A DNA stretch of 64,000 nt, from positions 81,555-145,554 of the forward strand of contig NJBO01000003.1 of the NCBI GenBank assembly GCA_005223075.1, written 5' to 3'. Positions 7,938 to 27,921 of this stretch are shown here, piece after piece (the first letter of the stretch is position 1; each line of letters opens with the position of its first letter). The notes under the pieces were generated by a model. It did no database searches. It was not told the origin of the DNA and was given only the letters and a program-made list of their open reading frames with translations. Source of the DNA: a candidate division TA06 bacterium B3_TA06. Its GTDB lineage: Bacteria > Hydrothermota > Tepidihabitantia > B3-TA06. The translations under genes were made by a program, and so were the position numbers.

Positions 7938-7994
7938 GCCCCGTAACACCCGTAACACCCGTAACACCCGTAATACACGTAACACACGGTAACA
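7938..7994. repeat. (ACCCGTAAC)n nonamer tandem repeat, intergenic between the two gdh paralogs
   Basis: cccgtaac acccgtaac acccgtaac acccgtaat acacgtaac acacggtaac. Confidence 0.8.
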
Positions 7995-8008
7995 GCAAAC
8001 CGTAAGGA

Positions 8009-9277: not shown

Positions 9278-9305
9278 CCCGTAACACCGTAACCCGTAAC
9301 ACGGG
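9271..9305. repeat. (CCCGTAAC)n repeat overlapping the gdh paralog stop codon
   Basis: The sequence is cccgtaacccgtaacaccgtaacccgtaacacggg. The TAA stop at 9275-9277 lies inside a repeat unit. Confidence 0.7.
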
Positions 9306-9310
9306 CATAA

Positions 9311-9360
9311 ATTTCCCCTAGAAGGGGTTCAGCTCAAACCAGGTCGGGGCCTGAGCCCCG
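9311..9360 (+). terminator. two GC hairpins (TTTCCCCTAGAAGGGG and CGGGGCCTGAGCCCCG) downstream of gdh operon; candidate terminator / palindromic element
   Basis: The stem-loops are visible directly. The first motif recurs at 61317-61340. Confidence 0.35.
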
Positions 9361-9448
9361 GCCTTTCTCTACACGTAGGTCTTTGTGAATAATACCGAGC
9401 GGATGAGCCTCAGAGGGTCGGGTGTCTGCCCTCAGACCGGGATTTATA

Positions 9449-12576: not shown

Positions 12577-13428
12577 GAACTCTATCCGTCTATTCCTGTA
12601 TGTCAAGAGGCAATACCGGACCCCCCGGCGACATGCCATCGCAGGCAGATACCGCCGGCAGGTTCGGGAACCGCTTTAACTCATCCGTATGCTGAGAGTT
12701 AATCTTAACGGTTATGATCCTGGAAGGATCGGGGGAGCTCGGAAAAGGTCTCTTCCCCTAGATCAACACCAACCACCTCATCGTTTACCCAAATCCTGGT
12801 TTCACGTTATCCCTCCTTGGATGCATACTATCTGCTTTGGCAGAGGAAGTCAAGTGGACAAATGTCTGTGCGCCAAGAGATTGTTACCAGGGTAGCGTGA
12901 TAGGGTGAGGGAAAGATGTGGAACAGCCTTACCTGCCTCTGTGCACGAGGGTGTCGCTCAATTCAAATTGCAAACTGCAAATTCTAAATTGCAAATTTGT
13001 CTGGATACAAGCGATAGAACTGTGGGCTTCGATTATGGAGAGATGAAGGGTATATGTTTGAGATTCTAATGAGTGTTGGTCCAGAGGGATAGATAAGCCT
13101 GGTTGTGGAGTATAGCTAATTACTAAGTCCAACAGTTTATAAAAACCGTCGCCGTCAATCTTGGGGTTATCCTTTAAGTTTGGGAATTGGCCATCACAGT
13201 GGACCAATTTAGCGAGTTGCAGGCCGATAAGTTCAAATAATCGGCAAGTTACCTTTGGCGGCAACCGCATTCAGACCATGCGGATAAGAATACCTCCTCA
13301 AGCAAAGGCCTTCTGTCTTCAGCACACTATCTTCTCCCTTGATGGGAAGGAGAGGTAACGAATGCTTCCTATCTTGACATCTTCGGCTGAGCCGTGTAGG
13401 ATATTCCTAATCCAACAAGGAGGAAAAG

Positions 13429-14565
13429 ATGAATAACCTTGCGTTCATAAAACGAGCAGCGCTCGTTATCCTTGCGCTGCTGATGCCCGTAACTGTTACC
13501 TGCAAGAAACAAGCCGGGAATAACAACCAAGTCGAGGAACGGTATCTCATCATCACTGAAGAAGGCGGGGACGAGAAAGAGATAGATGTCACCGGCTGGG
13601 AGCCTGGCGAAGAGTTCGTCTGGTTGAGTGGATTCGGCTACCCCTGGCAAGGTGAAGACAGCCTTGACTACCGTATCGAGGATGGTCTTCTATGGGTGAA
13701 CGGCAAGCTGGTCGGTGCGGACCTTGAAGAGGTCGCGTTCGCCGATCTGTCCAATCCTGAGGAGATAGTTAGCGTTCGCACGGATGCAGAGCATATGTTG
13801 GAGCTGAAGCGATTCCCCAATCTTACTGTAGTATTTCCTTTTGTCATAAAAGATGATGACTTGGCACACCTTAAGGGTTTCACCAACCTTAGGGCGTTGT
13901 ATCTGCTCGGGCCCCTGATCACGGACGCCGGGCTTCGCCACCTTTCAGGCCTCACCAACCTGAGGGAGTTGTATCTGTGGGAGACCGACATCACGGACGC
14001 AGGGTTTGTGCATCTCAAGGGTCTCACCAACCTGAGGGTGTTGAGTTTGTTCGAGACGGATATCACCGACGCCGGGCTTCGCCACCTTGAGGGACTCAAG
14101 AACCTGAGGGTGTTGGGTCTGCTCGGTACCGATATCACGGACGCCGGGCTTGCCCACCTTAAAGGTCTCACTAACCTGAAGGGGTTGTATCTGAACGGCA
14201 CCGATGTCACGGACGCCGGGCTTCGCCACCTTTCAGGCCTCACCAACCTGAGGGTGTTGGATCTGGGGGCCACCGACATCACGGACGCTGGGCTTACGCA
14301 CCTTAAAGGACTCACCAACCTGAGGGAGTTGAATCTGTGGTATACCGCTATCACCGACGCGGGACTTAAACACCTTAAAGGTCTCACCAACCTGAGGGAG
14401 TTGAATCTGCGGAATACCGACATCACGGACGCCGGGCTTCGCCACCTTGAGGGCCTCAAGAATCTGAGGATGTTGGATCTGTGGAGAACCAAGATCACGG
14501 ACGCCGGGGAAAAAGAGTTAAAAAAGGCGCTGCCGGAGTGTGGGATTTACCGTCATTATAGGTAA
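13429..14565 (+). CDS. secreted leucine-rich-repeat (LRR) protein
   Basis: Signal peptide present. There are about 9 tandem 24-aa repeats (LKGLTNLRxLxLxxTDITDAGLxH). Confidence 0.85.
   Translation: MNNLAFIKRAALVILALLMPVTVTCKKQAGNNNQVEERYLIITEEGGDEKEIDVTGWEPGEEFVWLSGFGYPWQGEDSLDYRIEDGLLWVNGKLVGADLEEVAFADLSNPEEIVSVRTDAEHMLELKRFPNLTVVFPFVIKDDDLAHLKGFTNLRALYLLGPLITDAGLRHLSGLTNLRELYLWETDITDAGFVHLKGLTNLRVLSLFETDITDAGLRHLEGLKNLRVLGLLGTDITDAGLAHLKGLTNLKGLYLNGTDVTDAGLRHLSGLTNLRVLDLGATDITDAGLTHLKGLTNLRELNLWYTAITDAGLKHLKGLTNLRELNLRNTDITDAGLRHLEGLKNLRMLDLWRTKITDAGEKELKKALPECGIYRHYR
13849..14497. repeat. about 9 tandem 72-bp coding repeats (LRR units)
   Basis: Near-identical 72-bp units are visible in the DNA. 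The antisense ORFs in the track are artefacts of these repeats. Confidence 0.8.
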
Positions 14566-15071
14566 GGATCGCAGAGGGAGCTAACGGCATGGACGCGGCT
14601 GCGCCGCTCATTTCAAATTTCAAAGTGCAAAATGCAAATTGAAGGTGCGCTAACGGCTAACAGCTCACCGCCGACCGCCCACGGCTGACAGCAAACGTGT
14701 ATAGGGTGTACCTTAAAGCATCCGTGGGATATTAGTTCGCTAGCGAGGCTGATACCCTATGAACGCATACAGTGCTCAAGGGATATGCTATACCTGACGG
14801 GAGCACGCTGTCCCATTAAGGGAGGAGAGTAATCTGCCTCCTCTATAAGAACCAGTCATGTAAACAGTTACACCTGTATCCAAACTCTAAACCCTCATGC
14901 ACCCCCCCTACCTCCCTATGCATCTTGCCAACCGACCCAGATTAACTTCCCTTAAAGGCATCTAACTAATATTCTCGAATCTCCCTCTACCCTCTTCTCC
15001 AGACCCCCCAATTAGTCCGCTCTCATGGTCAATTCCCTTAAGTTTTTCTATCCTTAGTTTAGCTGTATCGT

Positions 15072-15464
15072 TCATTGCGCCAGCCATTTCTCTATTGTGA
15101 CGGTGGTTCCATGACCTGGTTGGGTATTGATCTCCATATGGTCAGTAAGCCTTTTCGCACCGGGTAGTCCTTTCCCCATGGCCTTCATTGAGGACCAGCC
15201 GTCCTTTAGAGCCAGTTCCACATCATCTATTCCCGGACCATTATCGATGAAGCTTATGCGAATCCCGCTGTGAGAATCGGAGTGTTCTTCTATGTGAACT
15301 TCTCCTTCGCCTGCGTAGAGGTAGATGTTTCGGGCCAGCTCAGATACCGCGGTGCTGATCCGGGTCTGATCAACAAGCCCGAAACCTAACTTTCGAGCCA
15401 CCTCTTTTGCTGCGGCACGTGCGTGGACGATGTCAGATTCCTCTTTAATCGGAACCACTATCAT
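15072..15464 (-). CDS. rsbT: RsbT-like anti-sigma regulatory factor / serine kinase (stressosome switch kinase)
   Basis: The 130-aa protein has GHKL ATPase motifs (ELARNI, DNGPGI, GKGLPG). It is similar to B. subtilis RsbT. Confidence 0.8.
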   Translation of the reverse strand: MIVVPIKEESDIVHARAAAKEVARKLGFGLVDQTRISTAVSELARNIYLYAGEGEVHIEEHSDSHSGIRISFIDNGPGIDDVELALKDGWSSMKAMGKGLPGAKRLTDHMEINTQPGHGTTVTIEKWLAQ

Positions 15465-15882
15465 CCGCTTCCTCTTCTTCGCTTTCCTCCTCGAGACCTT
15501 GCTTCTCTGAGGCCTTCTCCTTCAGGCTCTCCTGCAGGAGTTCGTAGCCTTCGTCAAGGTTTATTGCTGTCCTTACCCCACCTAAGGAAAGCCCCAACTC
15601 CACCAATGTGATGGCAACCGCTGGCTGCATGCCCACGATCACGATCTCCGCATCAAGTGTAGAGGCCATCCTGGCTGTGTCCGCAAGGGTGCGCCCCATG
15701 AAGGAATCAACCATCTCCAAGGCTGAGATATCGATGAGTACGCCCTTGGCCTGAGTCTGGGAGATGCGCTCGAGGATATCTTGCTGAAGCTGCTGGGCTA
15801 TCCGGTCGTGCAGGTCAATCTGGATGGAGACGAGCAGGAAATCCTTCAGCTTAAGGATAGGAATAGAGGTGTTCTCTAGCAT
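15445..15882 (-). CDS. rsbS: RsbS-like STAS-domain stressosome scaffold protein with acidic C-terminal tail
   Basis: The internal start MLENTSIPILKLKDFLLVSIQ matches the RsbS N-terminus. A STAS domain follows. The tail is EEESEEEEADDSGSD. Confidence 0.8.
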   Translation of the reverse strand: MLENTSIPILKLKDFLLVSIQIDLHDRIAQQLQQDILERISQTQAKGVLIDISALEMVDSFMGRTLADTARMASTLDAEIVIVGMQPAVAITLVELGLSLGGVRTAINLDEGYELLQESLKEKASEKQGLEEESEEEEADDSGSD

Positions 15883-15884
15883 GG

Positions 15885-16535
15885 CTAGGCTTTCCGCTCT
15901 TCTACCATCCTTATGTTCAGACGCCCAAAGGCCCACTTCAAACCTTCAGCCAGGGTAGAGAGTGTCTCTACCCCTGAGAGATCCACCCCCAGATGCACCA
16001 TGGTCTGGGCGACCTCCGGTCGTATGCCGGTGATAACGCAGTCAGCACCCAGAAGCTGCACCGCGGCAATCGTTTTTAACATGTGATTGGCTACAGCCGA
16101 GTCAACCGTGGGAACGCCGGTGATGTCCAGTATGGTCACCTTGGTTTGGGTGGCCGCGATATCTGTCAAGAGGGACTCGGTGAGCCTCTGCGAGCGCCGG
16201 GTATCGAGCGTTCCGATAAGGGGCAGAACCAGCACACGCTCCCATATCTTGATGATGGGTGTTGAAAGCTCCTCAATTGCCTTGCGCTGTTGCTCGATAA
16301 GGGCGAGTTTTTCCTCAAGCTCTTCGGCCTTCTTCGTGCTCTCGCGAACCTCCTCGCCCATGTCGGAGATCACGAGATTTATCCCGGTCTCTACTGCGCT
16401 AAGGGCATCGGCCTTCTCTATATCGGTGTCGGTCTCAATCTGGACCCCGAAATCGCCGCACGCGGCCTGAGAAAGAATCTCTTCCATCCTTTCGATTCGG
16501 CTTTCCAGATCGGCTATCCCTTTCGTTTTAGCCAT
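15885..16535 (-). CDS. RsbR-like stressosome sensor protein (short coiled-coil N-domain + STAS)
   Basis: The motif STPIIKIWERVLVLPLIGTLDTRRSQ is typical of the RsbR STAS domain. The gene is adjacent to rsbS and rsbT. Confidence 0.7.
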   Translation of the reverse strand: MAKTKGIADLESRIERMEEILSQAACGDFGVQIETDTDIEKADALSAVETGINLVISDMGEEVRESTKKAEELEEKLALIEQQRKAIEELSTPIIKIWERVLVLPLIGTLDTRRSQRLTESLLTDIAATQTKVTILDITGVPTVDSAVANHMLKTIAAVQLLGADCVITGIRPEVAQTMVHLGVDLSGVETLSTLAEGLKWAFGRLNIRMVEERKA

Positions 16536-16561
16536 ACTTCACTCCTTCACAATGAGGCTAA

Positions 16562-16960
16562 TTACTTTGATTCCTTCTCTTTTCCCTTTTCGTCTTTCAG
16601 CCAGGCAAGGGCTTCTTCTTCCGTGTCGAAGAACTTGAGATCTCTCCCTCTTCCTATCGCTGTGAATACGATTTTGCCAAGCATCCGGAGTGTCGGGTTC
16701 GCTCCATGGATCGCTATCTTACCCCAGTTGACCAGGTTGATAGTTTCGCGGATTGTCTTGCGGGTCTGTTTATCGTGGAGAGTCTGAGACTCCTCGGCCA
16801 GCTCGATGAAGAAGTAGCGGTGTAGCTCGGGTTCAAAATTGTCTTTGACAAAATGGAAGAAGCCGGAGGTACCCTCCGAGTCTAATGCCTGATAGAGAAC
16901 CGCGCGCATCACCTCGTTTTCCTCGTCGAACCAGATCTTGTACTTCTCTTTCTCCTCCAT
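16562..16960 (-). CDS. SpoIIAA-like/STAS (DUF3478-type) small protein, copy 1
   Basis: The 132-aa protein ends in the pattern ...KFFDTEEEALAWLK, characteristic of the SpoIIAA-like family. A paralog lies at 18970-19362. Confidence 0.6.
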   Translation of the reverse strand: MEEKEKYKIWFDEENEVMRAVLYQALDSEGTSGFFHFVKDNFEPELHRYFFIELAEESQTLHDKQTRKTIRETINLVNWGKIAIHGANPTLRMLGKIVFTAIGRGRDLKFFDTEEEALAWLKDEKGKEKESK

Positions 16961-17121
16961 TTTTATTCTCCTTTCAGCGATTTAAAGGTTTTCTTGCGCA
17001 AGAAAAGCGAGTATCTTGCTTGCACCGAATCAGGTTTAGTCCCGATTCAGCTACGGCTAACATTATTCTGTCTTCATCTATGCCCACACTACCCATACTT
17101 GTAAGGGGGAAATCTTTGAAC

Positions 17122-17149
17122 ATATTACTGTTTTTCCTTCCCTTGTCAA
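17122..17149 (-). promoter_or_regulatory. candidate sigma-70 promoter (minus strand) for STAS-like gene copy 1
   Basis: Read on the minus strand, TTGACA is followed by a 16-nt spacer and TAATAT. This is conserved in the second copy. Confidence 0.4.
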
Positions 17150-17297
17150 CCCCATTTGATCAGCTCATCCTATTAATGCCCGAACATCCTTAAATAATAT
17201 TATTTTATTACATTTATCTAAAGGAACCAGCTAGATGGAGTCATTTCTAATTTTATTGGCTACTTCTTCCTATCTGAAAAATGACCTAAATGTTCAC

Positions 17298-17325
17298 TTG
17301 ACATATGCAGTTTTTTGATTATAAT
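17298..17325 (+). promoter_or_regulatory. candidate sigma-70 promoter for LuxE-like gene copy 1 (TTGACA-16-TATAAT), followed by ~160-nt conserved leader
   Basis: It has consensus hexamers and is identical in the second copy at 19696-19723. Confidence 0.5.
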
Positions 17326-17491
17326 CAATCAACGAACAAAAGGAGTCGTTCTTTGGAAATAAAAAACTGCTTCGCACACAGCGGGTGTTTCAGCAAAGAC
17401 TAACGCAGGCTTTACCGCTTCGAAAAGCCTGAAAACCTTAGCCAAAACTGCTTGATACATTTAAGTATCAAGTATTAAAAAGGAGAGCTAA

Positions 17492-18655
17492 ATGCCGAAA
17501 ACCACAAAAAAAACAAACAAGTATGCAACAGATTCGGAGTTCGTCCGCGATCTGGAGCATGACATCACTGCCTTCATAAAGGCCGGCGCTGAACAATCCG
17601 ATGTCGACGAAAAGTACAACGAACTCGCCCTTCGGTTGTTTGAGTACCAATACAACATGAACATACCTTACCAGAAGTACTGTGACAAATACGGCAAAAA
17701 ACCAGGCACCATAGATTCCTGGGAAGAGATTCCCGTGGTTACCACTTCCGCATTCAAGGAAGTGACATTCAGGACCTTTCCGGAGGAAGAAACTGTAATG
17801 CTCATGACCAGTAGCGGAACAGACGATCCTGAAAAGCGCTCAAAGGTCTATCTTAATAAGATGGGTCTCGAGTTATTCGACTTGTCCACCCAAACCGCAA
17901 TAGAACTTGGATTGTATGGTTCCCCGGATGAGAAGTTTCACGCATTGTTGCTCGGTCCCGATCCCGAATTAACGCCCGAGGCATCTATAGTGGTACGCGG
18001 ACTAATACAAGTGGTTGAAGGGCATTATATCGGGAAGCCGGAATTCTTCATAAAGCCTGATGGGTTCGATTTCGCAGGCCTTGCCGAAAGACTCAGGCAG
18101 GCCGAAGAGACCGGTGAACCGGTGGTGATCGCTGGAGCCACGTTCGGACATATCCACTTCTTTGACTATTGCCAATCCCAGGGCATCTCCTTCAAGCTGC
18201 CCGAAGGCAGCCGCTGCTTTGACGGTGGAGGCTACAAAGGCAAAGCAAGACAGATCACCAGAGAAGAGTACTGTCAACTGGCTAAAAAGGTACTTGACGT
18301 ACCGTCACATCTTCTTGTAAATTGCTACGGCATGGTCGAGGTACCCTTGCCTTTCATGGAAAACGTATTCTACAACCACAGAAAAGGCATAAAGGAACCA
18401 CGCTACAAGATGATTCCTCACTGGGGGAAAACCCTGGTTGTTGATCCCGACACCCTGAAGCCTTTGCCCAAGGGCGAACGAGGATTGCTTCGTCATTACT
18501 GTTTGGCTAATCTTGTGACCGCGCAGGCTATTCAAACGGATGATGTAGGTGTCGCAATCGGTTCCGGCTTCGAAATCTTGGGCCGTGCAAAAGGCTCCGA
18601 GGCGCGCGGCTGTTCCATTGCCATTGACGAACTCCTCAGCGCACAAAAAAAATAA
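17492..18655 (+). CDS. LuxE-family acyl-protein synthetase (fatty acid-activating, PaaK/LuxE adenylating superfamily), copy 1
   Basis: From memory it aligns with Vibrio LuxE: N-terminal F.YQ.N..Y..YC...G..P, central TSSGT, C-terminal GRAKGSEARGCSIAIDEL with the acylated Cys position. Size is 387 aa. Confidence 0.8.
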   Translation: MPKTTKKTNKYATDSEFVRDLEHDITAFIKAGAEQSDVDEKYNELALRLFEYQYNMNIPYQKYCDKYGKKPGTIDSWEEIPVVTTSAFKEVTFRTFPEEETVMLMTSSGTDDPEKRSKVYLNKMGLELFDLSTQTAIELGLYGSPDEKFHALLLGPDPELTPEASIVVRGLIQVVEGHYIGKPEFFIKPDGFDFAGLAERLRQAEETGEPVVIAGATFGHIHFFDYCQSQGISFKLPEGSRCFDGGGYKGKARQITREEYCQLAKKVLDVPSHLLVNCYGMVEVPLPFMENVFYNHRKGIKEPRYKMIPHWGKTLVVDPDTLKPLPKGERGLLRHYCLANLVTAQAIQTDDVGVAIGSGFEILGRAKGSEARGCSIAIDELLSAQKK

Positions 18656-18666
18656 TGGAGGACAGG

Positions 18667-18960
18667 ATGTCAGGGGCAGAAACATCTACCCCGGTGTTCT
18701 TCCTGTGTGCCCTGGATGAGACCCACGTTTAGAACCCTTTTGCCCTTGAGGTCCAAACCCGCGGGGATCGCGTCAGGAGAGATTCGCTGGCACCCACATC
18801 CTCCCTAGTTCTCCAATCATCGCAGAACCAAAACCAGCAAGGGAAAACTACCTATCCCATCTTGCGATTTATGAGTTTGTGGAGAGGATAGACAAAACCG
18901 TAGCCTTCTGGCGTGATCCCCGCTTTCCCTTTGCTCCTGTTCATGTCTTACTCCTTCAGA
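18667..18960 (+). pseudogene. 5' remnant of a LuxC-like gene (tandem-duplication junction)
   Basis: MSGAETSTPVFF... and YEFVERIDKTVAFWRDPRFPF match the LuxC N-terminus at 21050 (MRETSIPAFF..., YEIIETIDKAVALWRDPDYPL). The frame is broken in between. It is truncated where the second STAS-like gene begins. Confidence 0.55.
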
Positions 18961-18969
18961 GCGGGCTAA

Positions 18970-19362
18970 TTACTCTGATTCCTTCTCTTTTTCAGCCTTC
19001 AGCCAAGCAAGGGCCTCTTCTTCGGTTGCGAAGAACTTGGTATCCTTCGCCCTTCCAAGTGCCGTCGCTGCGATTCTGCCAAACATCCGCACGGCTGGTT
19101 TCGCGCCGCAGATCGCTATCTTGTAGAAATCAAGACTCGCAGCCCCATCCTTTAGTAATTTACGGCCTTCCTTCTCGGGTATAATCTGGCCACGTTCGGA
19201 AGAGATCTTGACTGATAGATAACGCCGTTGCTCCGGGGTGAATCCCTTTGCAGAGTTAATGAAACTTCCTACGTCTTCCGTCTCGAACTTATCAAAGATC
19301 TCCAGCCACAGTACCCCGTTCTCCTCGTCGTACCAGAGTTTGGATTTGTCTTTCTCTTTCAT
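18970..19362 (-). CDS. SpoIIAA-like/STAS (DUF3478-type) small protein, copy 2
   Basis: This 130-aa protein is a paralog of 16562-16960. It has the same C-terminal TEEEALAWLK motif. Confidence 0.6.
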   Translation of the reverse strand: MKEKDKSKLWYDEENGVLWLEIFDKFETEDVGSFINSAKGFTPEQRRYLSVKISSERGQIIPEKEGRKLLKDGAASLDFYKIAICGAKPAVRMFGRIAATALGRAKDTKFFATEEEALAWLKAEKEKESE

Positions 19363-19695
19363 TTTTCTCCTCCTTTTGGCGATTTAAGGGTTTCCTCGCG
19401 CAATAAAAGCGAGTCTCTTGCTTGCATCGAATCTGGTTTTAAGCCTGATTCAGTCACAGCAAGCATTACACTTCTCTATGCCCACACTACCCATACTTGT
19501 AAGCGGGGAATCTTTGGACATATTACTGTTTTTCTTTCCTTTGTCAAGTCCATTTGATTAGCTCACTCTATTAATGCCCGAACATCCCTAAATAATATTA
19601 TTTTATTACATTTATCTAAAGGAACCAACTAAATGGAACCATCTGTAGTCTTATTGGCTATCCATTTCTATTTGGAAAATGACCTAAATGTTCAC

Positions 19696-19723
19696 TTGAC
19701 ATATGCAATTTTTTGACTATAAT
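19696..19723 (+). promoter_or_regulatory. candidate sigma-70 promoter for LuxE-like gene copy 2
   Basis: TTGACA-16-TATAAT, as in copy 1. Confidence 0.5.
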
Positions 19724-19889
19724 CAATCAATGAATAAAAAGAGTCGTTCTTTAGAGATGAAGAACTGCTTCGCCCACAGCGGGTGTTTCAGCAAAGACTA
19801 ACGCAGGTGTTGCCGCTTCTAAAAGCCTGAAAACGTTAGCCGAAAACGCTTGATACATTAAAGTATCAAGTATTAAGAAGGAGGAACAA

Positions 19890-21041
19890 ATGCCGAAAAC
19901 AACAAAAAAAACAAAGAGGTATGCAGCCGATTCGGACTTCGTCCGCAATCTGGAACAGGACATCACAGCCTTCATAAAGGCAGGACGTGATCAAGCCGGC
20001 ACCGAGGAGCGCTTCAATGAACTGGCCCTTCTGTTGTTCGAGTACCATTATAACGCGAATGCGCCCTATCAGAAGTACTGCCAGAAAAGAGGAGTTGCCC
20101 CAGGCGAGATCCGCTCCTGGACACAGATCCCTGCGGTGCCCACAACCGCTTTCAAGGAGATCCCCTTATGCACCTTCCCACCGGAAAAGGCTGTGAAGGT
20201 CTTCACGAGCAGCGGGACCACCCAGCAGACCAAGCGCTCAACCCTTTATTTCGATGAAGCCGGGCTTCGCTTGCTTGAGCTGTCTCAGCAGACGGTGGTG
20301 ACTGAGACCATGTGTCGTGATTTCGACAAGGCTCGTCTTTTGCTCGCTGCTCCCCCACCAACTATGGCTCCCAATTTGGCGTTGACCAACTACCCGCTGC
20401 TCGCGCTTAAAGGCCGCCTGATTGGTGAGCCGGTGTATCTTATCGGCAAGGAAGGACTTGATTTCCCTGGATTGGTAGCGAACTTAAGAGAAGCCGAAGA
20501 TCCCCTGATTCTGACCGGAGCCACGTTCGCGTTCCTTCACTTCTTCGAGTACTCGAAATCCCAGAATATGTCGTTCCGGCTTCCCGAGAAAAGCGTTATA
20601 AACGACGGCGGAGGCTTCAAAGGGCAGGCGCGAGAGATACCCAGGGAAGAGTACTTCGAATTGGCCCGTCAGGTTCTCGGAATTCCACCGGAGCGCATCC
20701 TGAACGCCTACGGTTTGAGCGAGGTGGCCACGGGATTCAATGATAACGGATTGTACAACAAGACTAACGGCATAGATGGCCCACGTTACAAGATGATCCC
20801 GCACTGGGTTAAAGCGGTTGTGGTCGATCCGGATACGCTCAAACCCCTGCCCAAAGGCCAAACCGGCTTGCTGCGCTACCACTGCCTAACCAACTTTTCG
20901 AACGTGATGGCCGTGCAAAGCGACGATGTGGGTTATGCGGTCGAAGATGGCTTTGAGGTCGTAGGCAGAGCAAAAGGTGCTGAAGCACGCGGCTGCTCCA
21001 TTGCCATGGACGAGCTGATCAGTGCCCAAAAAATGAAGTAG
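19890..21041 (+). CDS. LuxE-family acyl-protein synthetase, copy 2
   Basis: It is a paralog of 17492-18655, roughly 55% identical by eye. The C-terminal Cys motif is retained (GRAKGAEARGCSIAMDEL). Confidence 0.8.
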   Translation: MPKTTKKTKRYAADSDFVRNLEQDITAFIKAGRDQAGTEERFNELALLLFEYHYNANAPYQKYCQKRGVAPGEIRSWTQIPAVPTTAFKEIPLCTFPPEKAVKVFTSSGTTQQTKRSTLYFDEAGLRLLELSQQTVVTETMCRDFDKARLLLAAPPPTMAPNLALTNYPLLALKGRLIGEPVYLIGKEGLDFPGLVANLREAEDPLILTGATFAFLHFFEYSKSQNMSFRLPEKSVINDGGGFKGQAREIPREEYFELARQVLGIPPERILNAYGLSEVATGFNDNGLYNKTNGIDGPRYKMIPHWVKAVVVDPDTLKPLPKGQTGLLRYHCLTNFSNVMAVQSDDVGYAVEDGFEVVGRAKGAEARGCSIAMDELISAQKMK

Positions 21042-21049
21042 CCGGCAAG

Positions 21050-22483
21050 ATGAGAGAAACATCAATCCCAGCGTTCTTCCTGCCCGAAGTTGCTGAGGCT
21101 GACCTTGGGGAGTTTACTACGCTTGAGTTCGGGCAAGGCCAGAACACGGTCAGGATGCATTCTCCCCTCCTTACACCTGCTTTGCTCTCCAAGATCATAG
21201 CGCAACTTAAAGAAGCGCGGGAGGAATACCTCGCCAAGCTCCCTGTCTATGAGATCATCGAAACCATAGATAAAGCCGTGGCACTTTGGCGCGATCCAGA
21301 CTACCCACTGCGTCGCAAGGCCGAAGCGCTACTTCCTCTCATCACCGGCTACTCCAGCGAGATGATTACCCAGACCCTGGACGAGATCGTACTCATGTTG
21401 CGGGGAGAAGACCTGAAGCTCCTTCTTGAAGAGGAGTTAGGCGACCCTCTGTTTCTGGATCAATTCAGGCCGCGGCCGAAAAGCACCGGGATGTGCAAGG
21501 TCTACGGGCCTCGTCTCACCACCGCCGTGTTCGCAGGCAACGTTCCAGGACTTCCTGTGGCAAACATCGTCTATGCGCTGCTCATGAAATCGGCGATCTT
21601 AGGCAAGTCATCCTCTGAGGAGCCTTTGTTCGGCGTTCTATTCGCACAAACTCTGGCTGAGATAGATCCTGAGCTGGCTCGCTCTGTTGCCATGGTTTGC
21701 TGGAAAGGCGGCGATGTGGAGATCGAACACCTGGCTTTTGGCTCCTCGGATGCTGTGGTTGTCTATGGCGGAGAGCATTCTGTAAACGAAGTCCGGAAGC
21801 GGGTTCCTTTCCGAACCCGCTTCATCGCCTACGGGCATAAACTCAGCTTCGGGGTCATAGGCCGCGAGCATCTAGCAGCGGACCGCGTCAGGCAGACGGC
21901 GGCCTGGGCAGCCGTAGACGCATCAGTCTTTGATCAGCAGGGGTGCCTGTCTCCTCACGTGTTCTACGTAGAAGAAGGCGGCCAGACCACGCCCAAGGAG
22001 TTTGCGAGGCTGTTGGCTAGCGAGATGGAGGCCTTTAACCAAAAGATCCCTCGCGGGAGGATCTCGCCTGACGAATCGGCACATATCAACCAGCTACGTG
22101 GCTCATACGAGTTCCGGGAGTTTGAAGACCAAGGTGTAGCACTGCATGCGAGCTCACGGGGTACGGACTGGACGGTTATCTACGAACGCGATCCGGCATT
22201 CGTGCCGTCGTGTCTGAATCGAACCATCCGCATCAAGCCGGTGAAAGACGTATCAGAAGTGGTTGGATTGATCGAACCCATAAAGGGCTACCTGCAGACG
22301 GTAGGCGCAGCTCTGCCACAAGAAAGGTTCTTATCCCTGGCGAATAAGATGGGCCAACTAGGGGCAGATCGCATCTGCCCTCTGGGCAAGATGACCGCTC
22401 CTTCCCTCACCTGGCATCACGACGGACGCTTCAACATACTCGATCTGCTCAGATGGACTGATATAGAACAAGGCTCAACATAA
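21050..22483 (+). CDS. LuxC-family acyl-CoA (acyl-protein) reductase, aldehyde-dehydrogenase-like
   Basis: The protein is 477 aa, the size of LuxC. It immediately follows LuxE. It has an NADPH-binding-like region (VFAGNVPGLP) and a conserved Cys (GCLSPH). Confidence 0.7.
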   Translation: MRETSIPAFFLPEVAEADLGEFTTLEFGQGQNTVRMHSPLLTPALLSKIIAQLKEAREEYLAKLPVYEIIETIDKAVALWRDPDYPLRRKAEALLPLITGYSSEMITQTLDEIVLMLRGEDLKLLLEEELGDPLFLDQFRPRPKSTGMCKVYGPRLTTAVFAGNVPGLPVANIVYALLMKSAILGKSSSEEPLFGVLFAQTLAEIDPELARSVAMVCWKGGDVEIEHLAFGSSDAVVVYGGEHSVNEVRKRVPFRTRFIAYGHKLSFGVIGREHLAADRVRQTAAWAAVDASVFDQQGCLSPHVFYVEEGGQTTPKEFARLLASEMEAFNQKIPRGRISPDESAHINQLRGSYEFREFEDQGVALHASSRGTDWTVIYERDPAFVPSCLNRTIRIKPVKDVSEVVGLIEPIKGYLQTVGAALPQERFLSLANKMGQLGADRICPLGKMTAPSLTWHHDGRFNILDLLRWTDIEQGST

Positions 22484-22517: not shown

Positions 22518-22560
22518 GTCCCCACGGGGTTGGAAACAACTCCGTGGGGACTTTGTTTTC
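22518..22560. terminator. rho-independent terminator (10-bp GC stem GTCCCCACGG/CCGTGGGGAC + T-run) between convergent luxC-like and SDR genes
   Basis: A perfect inverted repeat is followed by TTTGTTTTC. An A-run sits on the other side, so it may act in both directions. Confidence 0.6.
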
Positions 22561-22605: not shown

Positions 22606-23526
22606 TCATGACGCCAGCCCTGTTAACTCCTCACTGATTTTCCACAGCCGCTGCCAAGCTTCTTGGTTGTAAGAGGCTTTGGACGAACGCTTGGGTTTTC
22701 GCTTGGAGAAATACTTTCCGGTGACGCCCTCCACCTCCGGCGAGGACGCCAGATAGATGCTGGTCAGCGCACCCTCCTCAGGGGGAATCGCCCATAAGAG
22801 GTTAAAACTCACCCACCTGACTATCCTAAGAGCACCCCTAACCTGATGCGCCACGTTGGTCTTCACAAAGCCAGGATTGAGGGCATTTACCGTGACCCCG
22901 GTGCCCGCCAGCCGCCGCGCGAGTTCGTAGCTGAACATGAGCAGGGCAAGCTTGGAGTGGGTATATGCTGGGATACCGAAGAATTTTTCCCTGGTTGGTA
23001 GTTCGTTAAGATTTAACCCCTTAACCCATGCGTGCATGAAGGAGGAAACATTGACTATGCGGGACGGAGCACTGGTCTTGAGGACATCAAGTAACAGGTG
23101 GGTCAACAAAAAAGGAGCGATATGGTTGACGGCAAAGAACATCTCGATACCGTCGGAGCTCTGGGCTCGTTCGGCAAGACCAATGCCAGCGTTGTTTATG
23201 AGCACGTCCAGGCGTTGATAGCGATCCTTAAACTCCTGGGCCAGTCGGCGAATCTGAGCCTGCGAGGAGAGATCGGCAAGCATCAAATCAACCAAATCGT
23301 TTCCGCTCTCCCTCTTGATCTCGAGCCTGGCTGCCTCGCCTCGTTCCTTGCTGCGGCAGGCCATAACTACGGTCGCGCCCATCTTTGCCAATCCCAGAGC
23401 GGTTTCCTTGCCTATACCTGAGTTAGCTCCTGTCACCAGGCAGACCTTGCCTTTCATTTCATTCATCTTAGCCTCCTTGGTCTTTAGACTTATGTCTTTA
23501 AAGTCTGCCATTGAAGTCGTTGACAT
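22606..23526 (-). CDS. short-chain dehydrogenase/reductase (SDR) family oxidoreductase
   Basis: TGANSGIG Rossmann motif, NNAG motif, and the catalytic YxxxK region. Confidence 0.85.
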   Translation of the reverse strand: MSTTSMADFKDISLKTKEAKMNEMKGKVCLVTGANSGIGKETALGLAKMGATVVMACRSKERGEAARLEIKRESGNDLVDLMLADLSSQAQIRRLAQEFKDRYQRLDVLINNAGIGLAERAQSSDGIEMFFAVNHIAPFLLTHLLLDVLKTSAPSRIVNVSSFMHAWVKGLNLNELPTREKFFGIPAYTHSKLALLMFSYELARRLAGTGVTVNALNPGFVKTNVAHQVRGALRIVRWVSFNLLWAIPPEEGALTSIYLASSPEVEGVTGKYFSKRKPKRSSKASYNQEAWQRLWKISEELTGLAS

Positions 23527-23789: not shown

Positions 23790-24362
23790 ATGAGAGTTTA
23801 TCAATGTGGTAAGCGTTGGTATGTCGAGGACTCATACAACCCGAAAAGGTACCGCCGGTCCGCGGGTCGGACTAAGCGGGAGGCTCTTTTAAAACTTGGC
23901 GAGATTGAACGCTACAAAGAAGTCTGGATAGAGAATGTAAAGTCTGCTTCCGTTAACCGTGAGTTGGCGTTACTAAGGCATATGCTCCGTAAGGCAATAG
24001 ATTGGGATTACCTGCGGAAAGAAAATCCTGCAAGCAGGGTGAAACAGTTCAAGGAACCCTCAGGACGGGTAAGATACCTCTCCTTTGAAGAAAGAGAGCA
24101 ATTACTTGAAGCGTGTAAGCGGACTGGTATCGAGGATTTCCATTGTCACAGCCTTAGACACACCTTTGCCTCTTATCGCGTTATGGCGGGTGTAGACATC
24201 CGAACGGTTCAGGTACTGATGGGACACAAGGACATCAAGATGACCATGCGGTATTCGCATCTTTCCAAGAGATACCTCAGAAAGGCGGTAAACCGGATGG
24301 TCACAAATTGGTCACAAGTCGAGGATGCACCCGTCGAGCAATCTCCCAAGTTACGGAGTTAA
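23790..24362 (+). pseudogene. degenerate tyrosine-recombinase (integrase) remnant lacking most of the catalytic core
   Basis: The N-terminus is integrase-like (RRSAGRTKREALLKLGEIE). Box II is present (HSLRHTFAS...LMGHKDIKMTMRYSHL). The protein is only 190 aa, and the Box I Arg region between LSFEERE and HSLRH is missing. Confidence 0.5.
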
Positions 24363-24370
24363 AGAAACTT

Positions 24371-24442
24371 GCCGACGTAGCTCAGCGGTAGAGCAACGCT
24401 TTCGTAAAGCGTAGGCCGGTGGTTCGAATCCACTCGTCGGCT
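24371..24442 (+). tRNA. tRNA-Thr (anticodon CGU)
   Basis: A manual cloverleaf fold gives a 7-bp acceptor stem, D and T arms (GGTTCGAATCC), and anticodon loop TTCGTAA. No CCA is encoded. Confidence 0.9.
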
Positions 24443-24757
24443 TTTTCAATCGTTACCCAGTAGGGCGCAACCCGTTGTAACACAAGCACTTACAAGGGAT
24501 ATAGGTATCCCTTTGGGCGGGTGCAAGGTTTACCCTATCACACCTGAAAAGTAGGCGTTTGGGTGCAAAAATGGCTAAGAACCCCTAAAATAACACACCT
24601 ACTGACACAGCCCAAAAGGTGCTCGGAGAAACACAGCCCAAACACACCGCCGTCAGTTTGGGCCGCTGCCCAGAACTCAAAAGGTTAGTGCAGTAGGTCT
24701 ATATCTTCTCAAGCCGCTCTCTGAATCCGTCTTTCAAATGTACACGGGGCAACCTCG

Positions 24758-24973
24758 TCATTTTACCCGAATGTAAGTGTATCCTTCCTTTTTTATGTTT
24801 TGATCCAAATACTGACCTTTTGAAGGAGCATTCATAAGACCATCATATAAGGCAAGTGGAACACCAAAGTATTGATAGATTCTACCCCCATGAAACTCCA
24901 CCTCTAAGACTTGAGTAGATCGGTTGTACCCTACGGATACAAGATTACTCGATTGAACTGGGATTCTCTTCAT
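24758..24973 (-). CDS. KTSC-domain protein (71 aa)
   Basis: It matches the KTSC consensus (SSNLVSVGYNRSTQVLEVEFHGGRIYQYFGVPLALYDGLMNAPSKGQY). Its RBS overlaps the stop of the upstream ATPase gene. Confidence 0.7.
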   Translation of the reverse strand: MKRIPVQSSNLVSVGYNRSTQVLEVEFHGGRIYQYFGVPLALYDGLMNAPSKGQYLDQNIKKEGYTYIRVK

Positions 24974-24982
24974 CTTGTCACC

Positions 24983-27475
24983 TCAAATTTTCAGATTACC
25001 ACACCGACACTGCTTGAGTTTCGCATTGTTGGGTGAGTATTTTTTGCAAGCTTCTGTATTACAACTTGGACAAACGAAAAGGGCCTTAAATTCATCTATA
25101 TCTCTAAGAACCGTTTCCACATCCCCTCTACTTAAAGTAGTTGATTGCATGTTCCGATGATGTGAACCTAAATTTGTCAGCAGTTGACTTGCTCTTAAAT
25201 CATCAAAAATTGCTTTCCCATCCTTTGAACGCAGAGACTGGTTCTCATTTATGTAACTCCGCAGACCATCTAACAACTCGCTTGCTTCTCTTTGATCATT
25301 CCTAGGGCCTACACGAAATTCAAGGCTTTTCACACCGAGTTTAGAGCATTTGTCTTTCAACAATTCTTCAATTAAAGTTCTACAACGATTCGCAGCCTCA
25401 TGTATATTATTTCTCTCCAATTGCCATTTGATTCTTTCGTCTAATGTAGCTGGTGACTCTATGACCTCAACCCCTCTTTCAATTGACCATTTTTTCAACC
25501 CACGAAAACGCCATTTACCTGTAGGTGACAAGGTTTTCTTCAACTCTTCAAACCAGAGATCATCGTGTGTAAAAAGCAGAATCTGAACATCAGAAAACTC
25601 ATCACGGAGTAACCTTGCCAAAGCAAACCTGTGGTTCGAATCAAAACTGCTAATAACGTCATCGAGTATAATGAAATTGCTTACTTTGTTGAAGTATCTA
25701 ATGAAGGCTAAGAACAAACAGATACCAAGACTATTCATGTGGGATTCGCTTAGAACCTTTCGCGGTGGTGATATTTCCAAGCCGTGAAACAGAAGCTTGA
25801 ACTCGACACCCCTAAGTTCTGTTTGAATAAGCTGTATTTGATCTATTTTTTCGTCCAAATGAAGACGAGCAAAAAATTTTTCAACGTCGGAAGATATCAC
25901 CGAGATCACGGCGTTAAGCCCTTCCTTTTCTCGATTTTCAAAATCTCGTAGTACATGCCACATTGATGATATTTGTTCCCTGAATTTCTCAATCTTTTGA
26001 TTCAACCTTTGGATCTTTATAAAATTATCGCGCAATGAGTCAAGCCTGGCGACATTCCTGTAAAAAATCTTTTCTTCCTCGGTATCAGATAGTTCATCCT
26101 TGAGCGCTGCTAACTTCCCTCGTGTCTTTTGAATAGCTTCACTTAAGACTCTTAGACTTTCATCATTCGGCACTCCTACTTCAGTTGGTTCAATAACCTT
26201 CTGCATATTGATTGTCAAATCGTTCCACGCATTAAGGCGGTTCAGCCAGTTAATTATCTGATTCAATTCGTCGGGCAAGGTAAGGAGCTTCTTGTTTTCT
26301 TCGCTCTCGAATTCCTGGATTCCATCCATAGATGAAGTTATACTTACCCTCAATTGTTTCACGCTATCAATAAGTTCCTTTTTCTCTTTTAACAATGCTT
26401 CGAGCCTAATTACTTCTTCTTCCACAGTTTTTTGGAGTTGCAACGTATCAAATTTACTCTTACATAGAGGGCACTTGTTTGGTGCACCCCACCCTTTACT
26501 CAAAATCTGTTGGGCCTTGGCATAAAGACCTTCCCATGCCGAAGCAGCCAACAATTCCGGTTTCGCAACAAGTTTGTTGTGTTTGCCGGCGATGGTCTTT
26601 AACTGATTACAAATTTCTTCGGGTGTGCGTATTTTCTCAATGGCCCTCTGTAAAACCTCAACCGCAAGGCGCTTTTTACCTTTGTCGGTTCTCAATGTTT
26701 GTTCATCTAGGGTGTTGGCTACTGCAATTAGAGACTCAAAATCCGTTATTGGTTGAGGATGCTTTAGTTCTGCTCTTATTTGTTCAGTCGAACTGTCTGT
26801 CAAAGTCAGTCCCCTTAATTCGAGATGCTTTAGTTCTGCTCTTATTTGTTCAGCATAACTGATAATATCCTGAATTTCAAAAGTGTCGCGACCAATAATC
26901 CGACCGATTTCTTCTTTGCTATTCTGCAACCTAGCTTCATTTTGGATTAGTTCCTTGTCATCTTTCAACGCATTGTATACCTTCAGCAGAATCTCTCTCA
27001 TCTCCGTTACAACCCTAAACCCTACAATTTCCTCTATATCTTCAAGCTTTTCACTTTTTGTCTTGTCAACGAATCTTCCTATCGTAGAATGTCTTAAAAT
27101 GAATGATTCTTTCGCGACCTCCTCTATAAACTTATTAAATTCCTCAGATTGATTCGAAGAATAATACCCCCCTTTCCTTTTCAACGTCTTAACGGAGCTT
27201 AAGTTCACATCATCAAATTCAAGCGTAACAGTTGCATCTTGACTATCGGGCAAAGCCTTATTGAAGTAATCCTCTCTACCGCAACCTTCCTTTCTAAGGT
27301 CTTCTATTTCGTCAGTAAAGAACCATTCAATCGCATCTGTAAAGCTACTTTTACCATCACCATTGTTGCCGTATAAAACGAGATTTGGTGCATTATTGGG
27401 GAATTCAAGCACAACAGGCTTTAGAATGCCTCTGAAACCCTCTATGGTTAATCTCTTTAGACTAACTTTATCCAT
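24983..27475 (-). CDS. Rad50/SbcC-like ABC ATPase with coiled-coil zinc hook (CPLC) and C-terminal ~200-aa extension ending in a Cys4 Zn-ribbon; candidate RloC/PrrC-like anticodon nuclease
   Basis: Walker A is GNNGDGKSS. The middle is a long coiled coil containing CPLCKSKF. Near the C-terminus are Walker B/D-loop (FIILDDVISSFD) and an H-loop (LLFTHDD). The extension has an R-x3-E motif (RTLIEEL), SHH, and CPSC...CRCG. It sits next to a restriction-modification gene. Confidence 0.55.
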   Translation of the reverse strand: MDKVSLKRLTIEGFRGILKPVVLEFPNNAPNLVLYGNNGDGKSSFTDAIEWFFTDEIEDLRKEGCGREDYFNKALPDSQDATVTLEFDDVNLSSVKTLKRKGGYYSSNQSEEFNKFIEEVAKESFILRHSTIGRFVDKTKSEKLEDIEEIVGFRVVTEMREILLKVYNALKDDKELIQNEARLQNSKEEIGRIIGRDTFEIQDIISYAEQIRAELKHLELRGLTLTDSSTEQIRAELKHPQPITDFESLIAVANTLDEQTLRTDKGKKRLAVEVLQRAIEKIRTPEEICNQLKTIAGKHNKLVAKPELLAASAWEGLYAKAQQILSKGWGAPNKCPLCKSKFDTLQLQKTVEEEVIRLEALLKEKKELIDSVKQLRVSITSSMDGIQEFESEENKKLLTLPDELNQIINWLNRLNAWNDLTINMQKVIEPTEVGVPNDESLRVLSEAIQKTRGKLAALKDELSDTEEEKIFYRNVARLDSLRDNFIKIQRLNQKIEKFREQISSMWHVLRDFENREKEGLNAVISVISSDVEKFFARLHLDEKIDQIQLIQTELRGVEFKLLFHGLEISPPRKVLSESHMNSLGICLFLAFIRYFNKVSNFIILDDVISSFDSNHRFALARLLRDEFSDVQILLFTHDDLWFEELKKTLSPTGKWRFRGLKKWSIERGVEVIESPATLDERIKWQLERNNIHEAANRCRTLIEELLKDKCSKLGVKSLEFRVGPRNDQREASELLDGLRSYINENQSLRSKDGKAIFDDLRASQLLTNLGSHHRNMQSTTLSRGDVETVLRDIDEFKALFVCPSCNTEACKKYSPNNAKLKQCRCGNLKI

Positions 27476-27713
27476 TGCCTGCCTCTCTCAATTCCTTCAA
27501 CCCATTAAGAATCTCTTCTTTGGTAAATCTACTGCTATAAAAAAGGGAACGTAAAAGACCCATAACATCGGCATCGATCCGCAAAATGTCAAGTTCTTTA
27601 AAGAACTCCGCAACTAATTCCTTGCCTGTTTTTATGTCGGAAGCCTTCTCTCGCTCTTGTTCGCCCATTCCTATTTTCGGCTGTTCTTTTGTCTCGCCTG
27701 AAGATTCGGTCAT
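27468..27713 (-). CDS. hypothetical small protein (81 aa) between RM gene and ATPase gene
   Basis: A plausible RBS precedes the ORF. It overlaps the start of the downstream ATPase by 8 bp. No recognisable motif was found. Confidence 0.4.
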   Translation of the reverse strand: MTESSGETKEQPKIGMGEQEREKASDIKTGKELVAEFFKELDILRIDADVMGLLRSLFYSSRFTKEEILNGLKELREAGNG

Positions 27714-27921
27714 TTAATATCCTCTTTTTTGCCGATCTGCCAACCTCATAAGGAAATACTATACACTTAGACTATCCTTTTGTCAAGCCCCTTTGCCTAA
27801 AATTGCGACTTTAAGAAATTGCCTCTCTGAGATTTCAGAGCAGGATTAGGGCAAGGAATTGGTGCAAAAGTGGTGCAATTTTGGTGCAGGGGCTTAGGGT
27901 GAAATTATGGTGGGCGATAGT

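Follow-up and report, generated by a model that had tools for sequence, protein, structure and literature searches.

A LuxE/LuxC-family locus back-to-back with a stressosome operon led by a small STAS-like protein in candidate division TA06

In the LuxC-LuxE enzyme of Photobacterium phosphoreum (7XC6), an acid is adenylated, transferred to a cysteine of LuxE, passed to a cysteine of LuxC and released as an aldehyde, a sequence of steps that constitutes the established LuxCE chemistry (PMC9157457). Outside lux operons, pairs of LuxE and LuxC have already been found widely, for example in the flagellin glycosylation islands of Enterobacteriaceae (PMC4875605), and are not new in themselves. Stressosomes built from RsbR, RsbS and RsbT have been described in Bacillus subtilis, Listeria (6QCM, 7B0U), Moorella and Vibrio vulnificus (7O0I), and their operons are modular, with a variable RsbR N-terminal domain and lineage-specific neighbours, an 'output module' concept treated in PMC9237108 and related work. 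The SpoIIAA-like/DUF3478 (PF11964; 2Q3L, 2OOK) and DUF7793 (PF25056) families comprise stand-alone proteins of ~120-130 amino acids (aa) with a STAS fold, and their function is unknown. Here we analyse a locus in which proteins related to each of these systems are encoded side by side: in a 64-kb stretch of DNA (hereafter the window; contig NJBO01000003.1, positions 81,555 to 145,554) from an uncultured sediment bacterium of candidate division TA06, two luxE genes, one luxC gene and one dehydrogenase gene lie back-to-back with a stressosome operon that is led by a small STAS-fold gene, which we call STAS-like.

The locus shares with Photobacterium the same Pfam families for both enzymes, a luxE gene directly upstream of luxC, and the catalytic Cys of LuxC. 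It differs from the lux operon in that its proteins are distant from their luminous counterparts, luxA, luxB, luxD and luxG are lacking, and two LuxE proteins, a short-chain dehydrogenase (SDR) and a divergent stressosome operon accompany the one LuxC. A luciferase-free core is also found in the non-luminous LuxE/LuxC pairs, such as those of the glycosylation islands, and in the LuxE-LuxC-SDR or ADH-LuxE-LuxC sets of Paenibacillus, Chloroflexi and Gemmatimonadota, whose LuxC proteins are 48-54% identical to that of the window; those loci, however, lack STAS-like and Rsb genes and have permeases, ABC transporters or glycosylation genes as neighbours. The gene order R-S-T and the phospho-acceptor positions are those of the known stressosomes, and matches between the STAS domains have E-values of 1e-30 to 1e-32, whereas the head of the window RsbR is a short HAMP-like helical domain and not a globin, no RsbX or RsbU gene follows in the window, an extra small STAS-fold gene whose family has expanded into arrays precedes rsbR, and the stressosome adjoins an enzyme pathway in place of a sigma-factor, two-component or c-di-GMP module. 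The small proteins themselves score at or under the Pfam cut-offs of PF11964 and DUF7793.

Our literature search found no paper tying LuxCE, PF11964/DUF3478 or DUF7793 to a stressosome, none on stressosomes in TA06 or WOR-3, and no published function or genomic association for PF11964/DUF3478 or DUF7793, in agreement with an earlier note on this DNA that knew of no described STAS-LuxE-LuxC module. The novelty lies in a stressosome that is accompanied by a new accessory family of STAS proteins and has an enzyme pathway for a conserved neighbour; the linkage to HAMP-like domains and the arrays are likewise new observations. With moderate confidence we read the whole as a lineage-specific composite locus that would encode a stress-linked pathway from carboxylate to aldehyde to alcohol, co-controlled with the stressosome and provided with small STAS-fold inputs.

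The enzymes and the stressosome operon

The families that the earlier note had assigned from the letters alone were confirmed by Pfam for LuxE, LuxC and rsbRST, and an open reading frame (ORF) listing placed every gene where that note had put it (Table 1). LuxE1 and LuxE2 share 54% protein identity and both match PF04443 over profile positions 25-389 of 391. LuxE2 aligns with Photobacterium LuxE (7XC6 chain E) over its full length (phmmer, E = 3.5e-23), such that Cys369, Arg360 and Lys244 fall on Cys364, Arg355 and Lys238 within the motif pairs 'grakgaeargcs'/'rrlntreqkgcs' and 'gggfkg'/'gggwkt'. This alignment was run for LuxE2 only, and the corresponding residues of LuxE1 were located by motif search; the acylatable cysteine is in these terms retained in both copies (Cys374 and Cys369), as previously claimed. 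At 383-387 aa, against 373 aa in Photobacterium, both proteins have the short C-terminal Cys tail (R..GC.) of the luminous enzyme and, like it, lack the ANL C-terminal subdomain. LuxC aligns with 7XC6 chain A (E = 1e-21), with Cys299 on the catalytic Cys296 ('fdqqgcls'/'ydqqacfs').

None of the three proteins reaches the thresholds for orthology with the lux operon: the LuxE copies score 86.6 and 90.1 bits against NCBIfam equivalog NF052244, for which the cut-off is 550, and LuxC scores 106.9 bits against NF052251, for which it is 750. Because these scores fall so far under the cut-offs, LuxE1, LuxE2 and LuxC are, judged by sequence, family members and not lux-operon orthologues. The Pfam scan, which covered nearly all ORFs of at least 150 aa in the window (the few exceptions being mostly overlapping or antisense), revealed no family of the luxA, luxB or luxD type, whose absence had been noted before.

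The earlier gene list overlooked the adjoining RDH-like SDR, which is conserved with the module. An SDR gene adjoins LuxC in L007, L011, L012, L015-L017, L034, L035 and L039 as well as in the Paenibacillus locus L013, and its conservation points to an alcohol as the probable end product. Among LuxE types, the least conserved stretch comprises residues ~121-200, where mean pairwise identity is 0.32-0.43 compared with 0.54-0.79 elsewhere; by analogy with PaaK-type adenylating enzymes, this stretch would shape the acyl pocket. As the two copies differ most at this putative pocket, LuxE1 and LuxE2 probably feed different acids into the single LuxC. The paper on a cultured WOR-3 isolate contains no relevant lipid data.

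On the minus strand, residues 80-213 of RsbR match the STAS domain of Listeria RsbR (residues 143-276) at E = 1e-32, and Ser146 and Thr178 occupy the two phospho-threonine positions ('vdsava'/'vdtmva' and 'aqtmv'/'aqtiv'). The phospho-serine of RsbS in B. subtilis is Ser59. The window RsbS matches the Listeria and B. subtilis proteins (6QCM, 6JHK; E = 3e-30), and its Ser60 takes the place of the phospho-serine ('mvdsf'/'midsf'). A sequence search of the PDB returned no solved homologue of RsbT, which is 77-99% identical in relatives and has the kinase domains listed in Table 1. The operon is tight, with 26 bp separating STAS-like 1 from rsbR and rsbT overlapping the end of rsbS by 20 nt. The earlier note was right that the STAS-like genes and rsbRST share a strand; that strand is the minus strand, and STAS-like 1 is the first gene of the operon. 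We regard RsbR-RsbS-RsbT, on the strength of these alignments, as a genuine stressosome module. In a Stahlbacteria metagenome-assembled genome (MAG), a gene for a HATPase_c_2-SpoIIE (kinase-PP2C phosphatase) fusion lies 3' of rsbT (L026:4268-5272) and is a candidate downstream partner.

Conserved layout, duplication and reassortment

Relatives were collected with three queries: the small protein, LuxC and an alignment of small proteins. The layout SDR / LuxC-LuxE / ~530-bp control region / STAS-like-RsbR(-RsbS-RsbT) recurs in ~15 independent loci, drawn from genomes and metagenomes of TA06, WOR-3 and 'Stahlbacteria' (L001-L012, L015-L018, L034-L036 and L039), in which LuxC is 66-100% identical to the window protein and the SDR usually, though not always, adjoins it. 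The arrangement is thus kept in related genomes, a point that the earlier note had left to be checked, and the linkage is lineage-specific.

That note had also described two paralogous units, and their tandem duplication left clear traces. The 315-bp gap between LuxE1 and STAS-like 2 holds two remnants: just 3' of LuxE1 the 5' end of luxC persists in decayed form (MSGAETSTPVFFL... and then a stop codon) and aligns to the LuxE2-LuxC junction as GAAACATC..CCC.G.GTTCTTCCTG, and just below STAS-like 2, on the opposite strand, lies the start of rsbR, consisting of a decayed ribosome-binding site, the ATG and the first codons. Given both remnants at the junction, the tandem duplication is real, and the copied segment was [5'-rsbR / STAS-like / control region / LuxE / 5'-luxC]. 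A duplicated layout is also present in L007, L008, L034, L035 and L039; L010 has three divergent STAS-like/LuxE pairs and two LuxC genes, and L011 has two STAS-like-RsbR pairs.

The two control regions are 87% identical at the DNA level, compared with 65-67% for the flanking coding DNA. Control region 2 is 95-98% identical to those of L001, L005 and L007_a, and across relatives the control region retains 81-98% identity where the genes on either side fall to ~65%. Each contains two promoter-like sites of the sigma-70 type, a perfect one for LuxE (TTGACA-16-TATAAT, plus strand, 17298-17325 and 19696-19723) and an opposing one for STAS-like (TTGACA-16-TAATAT, minus strand, 17149-17122 and 19547-19520), which would leave untranslated leaders of ~155-165 nt on both sides, ~165 nt for LuxE. 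The LuxE leader (17332-17491 and 19730-19889) folds better than shuffled controls in copy 2 (z = -3.2) and marginally so in copy 1 (z = -1.9). Immediately 5' of the ribosome-binding site, a hairpin of 9-10 bp keeps its pairing among 13 loci through one double change from G-C to A-U, and a putative helix (GGUGUUU/AAAUGCC) could sequester the AUG. The leader may be a cis-regulatory element. In the distant loci L010-L012 the promoter, ribosome-binding site and long leader are kept, but the sequence of the control region is not.

Three other accounts of the intergenic region were rejected. The leaders gave no Rfam match to a known riboswitch or small RNA at E <= 5; a hidden small protein is not supported by the ORFs present, which are of 25-57 aa and overlap promoter elements; and an ultra-conserved non-coding element is contradicted by the closeness of the relatives, whose flanks are 91-98% identical, and by the loss of the sequence in L010-L012. 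For these last two reasons, diverged gene cassettes around a retained control region are, from the alignments, a better description than an ultra-conserved RNA.

The closest relatives have flanks of 91-98% DNA identity and proteins of similar closeness (RsbR 89-97%, RsbS 85-98%, LuxC 84-98%), and nevertheless carry at least five types each of STAS-like (45-65% identity) and of LuxE (54-65%). The two STAS-like copies of the window share 44% protein identity, and orthologue-like copies of STAS-like 1 occur in L001 and L017 at 64-65%. The WOR-3 loci L010 and L011 encode a LuxE that shares 79-80% identity with LuxE1, alongside a LuxC of only 66-68% and a STAS-like partner of 41% identity, and L009 combines the copy-2 STAS-like type (86%) with another LuxE type (70% to L012, 54% to LuxE2). 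Strict co-evolution of STAS-like and LuxE was consequently discarded: since the types reassort independently, they do not look like co-adapted pairs. The control region and the conserved gene termini look like the recombination junctions at which these types would be exchanged.

The GC content of the STAS-like and LuxE1 genes is 49-50% and that of the control regions 37-38%, compared with 54-55% for LuxE2, LuxC and rsbRST (window 16001-20000). The lower values, also relative to the flanks, are consistent with exchangeable cassettes.

The STAS-like family, its arrays and the wider neighbourhood

The small STAS-like proteins lie at the edge of described families: copy 1 falls under and copy 2 just passes the PF11964 cut-off of 25 bits, and copy 2 stays under the DUF7793 cut-off of 26 bits (Table 1), with array paralogues of the same family exceeding both at 34-38 bits. 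The AlphaFold2 model of STAS-like 2, based on 42 homologues, has a pLDDT of 91.9 and the STAS topology beta-beta-alpha-beta-alpha-beta-alpha-beta-alpha. Foldseek matched this model with probability 1.0 to 4HYL, 1THN, 6JHK and 2Q3L; the best PDB matches were anti-sigma antagonists (4HYL, SpoIIAA), RsbS (TM-score 0.60) and the DUF3478 protein 2Q3L (0.59), over a range of 0.56-0.60. At a threshold of E <= 1e-3, an exhaustive profile search yielded 1,630 cluster representatives; almost all are stand-alone proteins of 118-135 aa.

In WOR-3/Stahlbacteria genomes and metagenomes, these genes form tandem same-strand arrays of up to at least 25 members: L020 contains 25 consecutive STAS-like genes, and L021, L024, L025, L040, L043 and L044 contain 10-17. 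The array of L020 lies at 6469-16250 in WOR-3 MAG Zod_Metabat.887 (JAFGSK010000031.1), and further arrays of the DUF7793/PF11964 type were seen in L021, L023, L024, L025 and L040-L047, often with overlapping stop and start codons. Arrays terminate in RsbR-RsbS(-RsbT) in L025 and L045; the L025 array is preceded by genes for a multi-PAS histidine kinase and a sigma-54 activator. The N-terminal domain of RsbR (residues ~5-80) also occurs by itself within arrays, in the form of interspersed ORFs of 76-85 aa (Table 1). This domain can be aligned with the part of soluble histidine kinases that Pfam assigns to HAMP, and in the Dehalococcoidales-type contigs L027, L052, L056 and L059 a single STAS-like gene directly precedes a gene with a HAMP-like domain, whose HAMP-like region aligns to the RsbR N-terminus in all four; in L052 and L056 Pfam identifies the product as a soluble HAMP-HAMP-HisKA-HATPase histidine kinase. 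As the types reassort and LuxE-free arrays stand beside RsbR, the primary partner of the STAS-like proteins appears to be RsbR with its HAMP-like head; more generally, comparison across contigs identifies a soluble HAMP-like-headed protein with any output domain as the recurrent partner of the family, and not LuxE/LuxC.

These observations bear directly on the earlier proposal that the STAS-like proteins are added partner-switching components linking stress to LuxE/LuxC, which in its explicit form holds that they are extra RsbV/SpoIIAA-type antagonists, phosphorylated by RsbT, that relay the stressosome signal directly to the two enzymes. The STAS fold and membership of the rsbRST operon stand, and it may be added that the closest structural matches are anti-sigma antagonists, that RsbT is a HATPase_c_2 kinase of the RsbW/SpoIIAB type, and that STAS-like and LuxE genes are paired in the window, L007, L010, L034, L035 and L039. 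The phospho-acceptor and the LuxE link, however, are not supported. No Ser or Thr is invariant across 42 family sequences, in which the invariant residues are R67, A83, G86 and W120, and in a weak hhalign alignment (E = 0.011) the phospho-serine of RsbS falls opposite the E, Q or A of a 'KETR' motif, whose adjoining Thr is Gly in copy 2 (KEGR). Because the family lacks a conserved Ser/Thr at the phospho-serine position of RsbS and SpoIIAA, a classical phosphorylation-driven partner switch is not indicated. The direct relay is further at odds with the reassortment of types (LuxE1 is 80% identical to the L011 LuxE and their STAS-like partners 41%, and L009 mixes types), with arrays entirely devoid of LuxE and LuxC, and with the absence of any extra STAS-docking domain in these enzymes, whose lengths approximate those of the Photobacterium proteins. 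We consider this explanation distinctly unlikely.

One may postulate instead that the small protein is a ligand carrier, a STAS/SEC14-like protein that binds the acyl, aldehyde or alcohol species of LuxE/LuxC, or is itself acylated by LuxE, and presents the lipid to RsbR, such that the stressosome would sense a lipid or an aldehyde. In its favour, the STAS-like and LuxE genes diverge from a common control region, one family member is named 'STAS/SEC14 domain-containing protein' at NCBI, and acyl-protein synthetase is the very definition of LuxE (PMC9157457). Set against this, the reassortment of types gives no sign of co-adapted pairs, none of the four invariant residues is a Cys, Ser or Lys that could serve as acceptor, and the arrays lack LuxE; we rate the idea slightly below the phosphorylation-based relay.

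The long arrays of small diverged paralogues resemble immunity-gene arrays, several diverged types are found among genomes otherwise 91-98% identical, and a defence island lies 1.5 kb away, which could suggest that cassettes and arrays belong to a conflict system, either phage defence or toxin-immunity. PADLOC models nevertheless match no protein of the module, and the enzymes retain all catalytic residues. The arrays end in RsbR-RsbS-RsbT (L025, L045) and hold RsbR-head paralogues, with no toxin-like gene seen, and the defence island, inserted separately at a tRNA gene, is missing from L001. A conflict system is accordingly very improbable.

That island (23790-33696), which the close relative L001 lacks, has a low GC content (41-48%); its tRNA and its genes are included in Table 1. 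On the other side of the module, a gene for a leucine-rich repeat (LRR) protein (13429-14565) lies between rsbT and a TonB-dependent receptor gene and is an insertion relative to L001; LRR genes adjoin the module also in L011/L019 and L036. An antisense ORF of 276 aa (13668-14498) is probably spurious, a by-product of the LRR repeats. Two tandem paralogues of the glutamate/leucine-type dehydrogenase (6672-7934 and 8009-9277; ~69% DNA identity) are kept in L001, and upstream of them are genes for a GAF histidine kinase and a sigma-54 response regulator (2817-6073). An alpha-2-macroglobulin (A2M) cluster (33859-41190) encodes a DUF1175/MagC-like protein, a 1534-aa A2M, a transpeptidase (penicillin-binding protein) and a SpoIID-like protein, and is 96-98% identical to relatives.

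Table 1. Coordinates of the locus, of the neighbouring island and of genes in related contigs (positions refer to the window unless a locus is named).
Feature	Coordinates	Strand	Remarks
RsbT-like serine kinase, 130 aa	15072-15464	-	Last operon gene; Pfam HATPase_c_2 (39 bits) and HATPase_c (45 bits); NCBIfam anti-sigma F factor family, 48 bits
RsbS, 145 aa from ATG at 15882	15445-15882	-	One STAS domain (Pfam STAS); Ser60 in VDSF motif
RsbR-like, 216 aa	15885-16535	-	N-terminal HAMP-like helical domain (residues ~2-90) and C-terminal STAS; Ser146, Thr178
STAS-like 1, 132 aa	16562-16960	-	First gene of rsbRST operon; PF11964, 22.2 bits
Control region 1, 531 bp, 37% GC	16961-17491	both	Divergent promoters, STAS-like 1 / LuxE1
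LuxE1 acyl-protein synthetase, 387 aa	17492-18655	+	PF04443, 88.7 bits (cut-off 24.9); TSSGT at 106, Lys249, Arg365, Cys374
luxC 5' end, decayed	18667-18730	+	Left edge of duplication junction
Decayed junction, STAS-like stop to rsbR start	18852-18969	-	Right edge of duplication junction
STAS-like 2, 130 aa	18970-19362	-	Apparently transcribed alone; PF11964, 25.5 bits; DUF7793, 20.4 bits
Control region 2, 527 bp, 38% GC	19363-19889	both	Divergent promoters, STAS-like 2 / LuxE2
LuxE2 acyl-protein synthetase, 383 aa	19890-21041	+	PF04443, 95.5 bits (cut-off 24.9); Lys244, Arg360, Cys369
LuxC acyl-thioester reductase, 477 aa	21050-22483	+	PF05893, 328 bits (cut-off 21); catalytic Cys299
Terminator-like hairpin, strong, 15-bp stem	22518-22551	+	Intrinsic type, 3' of luxC
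SDR, 306 aa, PRK06197/RDH-like	22606-23526	-	Convergent with luxC; perfect TTGACA-17-TATAAT promoter at 23578-23550
Island tRNA	24371-24442		Second, weaker tRNA-like match at 33607-33696
Island integrase, truncated	23790-24362		
Island integrase, full	32247-33578		
Island LmuB-like SMC ATPase	24983-27475		
Island 81-aa ORF			
Island DrmMI/type IIG methyltransferase-like	27922-31647		
Stand-alone RsbR-head ORFs	L025:9912-10169, 14861-15100; L024:7215-7445, 9338-9574; L021:1097-1333		
Gene after STAS-like	L052:746-2397; L056:2288-3997; L027:2523-4174; L059:2675-3352		

A composite locus and its meaning

We propose that two known modules have been joined head-to-head through the ~530-bp control region. 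The first would be a LuxE-LuxC-SDR carboxylic acid reductase, acting most likely on fatty acids: LuxE would adenylate an acid and thioesterify it on its own C-terminal tail cysteine, the acyl group would be passed to the LuxC cysteine, LuxC would reduce it with NAD(P)H and release the aldehyde, and the RDH-like SDR may then turn this aldehyde into an alcohol. The second would be a minimal stressosome, consisting of a HAMP-like/STAS RsbR, RsbS and the kinase RsbT, led by the small divergent STAS-fold gene. Because the recurrent partner of the small protein has a HAMP-like head, we suggest that it serves as a detachable input or adaptor subunit on the soluble head of RsbR, and not as a phosphorylated switch of the RsbV type. 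As the two modules share a control region with back-to-back promoters and long conserved leaders, they may well be co-controlled. The arrangement would probably serve to tie stress sensing to the metabolism of envelope lipids or of aldehydes; the stressosome may control the pathway, a product of the pathway may feed the sensor, or a common regulator may act on both.

This interpretation must be made cautiously, as several observations weigh against it. All functional claims on the locus are comparative. Distant LuxE-LuxC-SDR sets adjoin Xan_ur permeases, hinting at substrates other than fatty acids there. Covariation in the LuxE leader is negligible (RNAalifold on the 13 loci: a term of -0.11 kcal/mol and one convincing compensatory pair). 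The likeness of the RsbR head to HAMP domains is weak, with phmmer E-values of ~1e-7 to 1e-9 against kinases and no match of Pfam HAMP to RsbR. No phosphatase of the RsbU or RsbX type that could partner RsbT adjoins the operon in the window. The majority of STAS-like genes lie in arrays, away from any LuxE gene. Lastly, the link between LuxE/LuxC and the stressosome is confined to one lineage: it is gone at a locus whose LuxC is 59% identical and whose neighbours are unrelated, and other phyla have LuxE-LuxC-SDR, or a fusion of alcohol dehydrogenase and LuxE together with LuxC, beside permeases or ABC transporters and without Rsb genes.

Owing to this restriction, the link could be an inherited adjacency, which leads to an alternative in which LuxE-LuxC-SDR and the STAS-like/stressosome genes are functionally unrelated neighbours handed down together in a narrow lineage. 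The association is indeed found only where LuxC identity is at least 66%, is absent in Paenibacillus, Chloroflexi and other contigs besides the 59% locus, and involves a STAS-like family that mostly occurs without LuxE. Mere adjacency nevertheless sits poorly with the co-duplication of STAS-like and LuxE in the window, L007, L008, L034, L035 and L039 and their triplication in L010, with the persistence of the pair amid changing flanks (Por_Secre_tail proteins, an LRR protein, the orientation of the SDR), and with a control region kept at 81-98% DNA identity between genes that fall to ~65%. We think it improbable that the two modules are neighbours only, and because the linkage is confined to one lineage the idea remains a serious alternative to the composite pathway.

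A broader conjecture, to which we attach about the same small probability, is that the DUF7793/SpoIIAA-like STAS proteins represent a hitherto unrecognized class of sensor subunits, detachable from the cytoplasmic HAMP-headed proteins that they would serve, namely RsbR and soluble histidine kinases. Arrays of dozens of such genes in WOR-3/TA06 would then give one stressosome combinatorial inputs, and what is sensed or controlled in the LuxE/LuxC loci would be an aldehyde or alcohol of lipid type, produced through interchangeable LuxE specificity cassettes. If true, no other stressosome would precede this one in being coupled to a defined metabolic pathway and to a candidate small-molecule signal.

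What signals stressosomes perceive has long been debated, and even in Bacillus both the signals and the role of the RsbR paralogues are disputed (for example PMC11821858). A stressosome consistently partnered with LuxE-LuxC-SDR offers a concrete candidate for a signal or output, namely a fatty aldehyde or alcohol. The natural LuxE 'specificity cassettes', with their common LuxC, could moreover be of use in engineering carboxylic acid reduction. For the STAS-fold family, which counts ~1,600 cluster representatives, the association with HAMP-headed proteins and the occurrence of at least 25 genes in tandem suggest a modular input layer, and the loci described here provide the first genomic context assigned to DUF7793/PF11964-like proteins. 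The main interest lies less in LuxE/LuxC as such than in the small STAS family: its link to the stressosome, its expansion into arrays, and the testable metabolic module with which it is paired.

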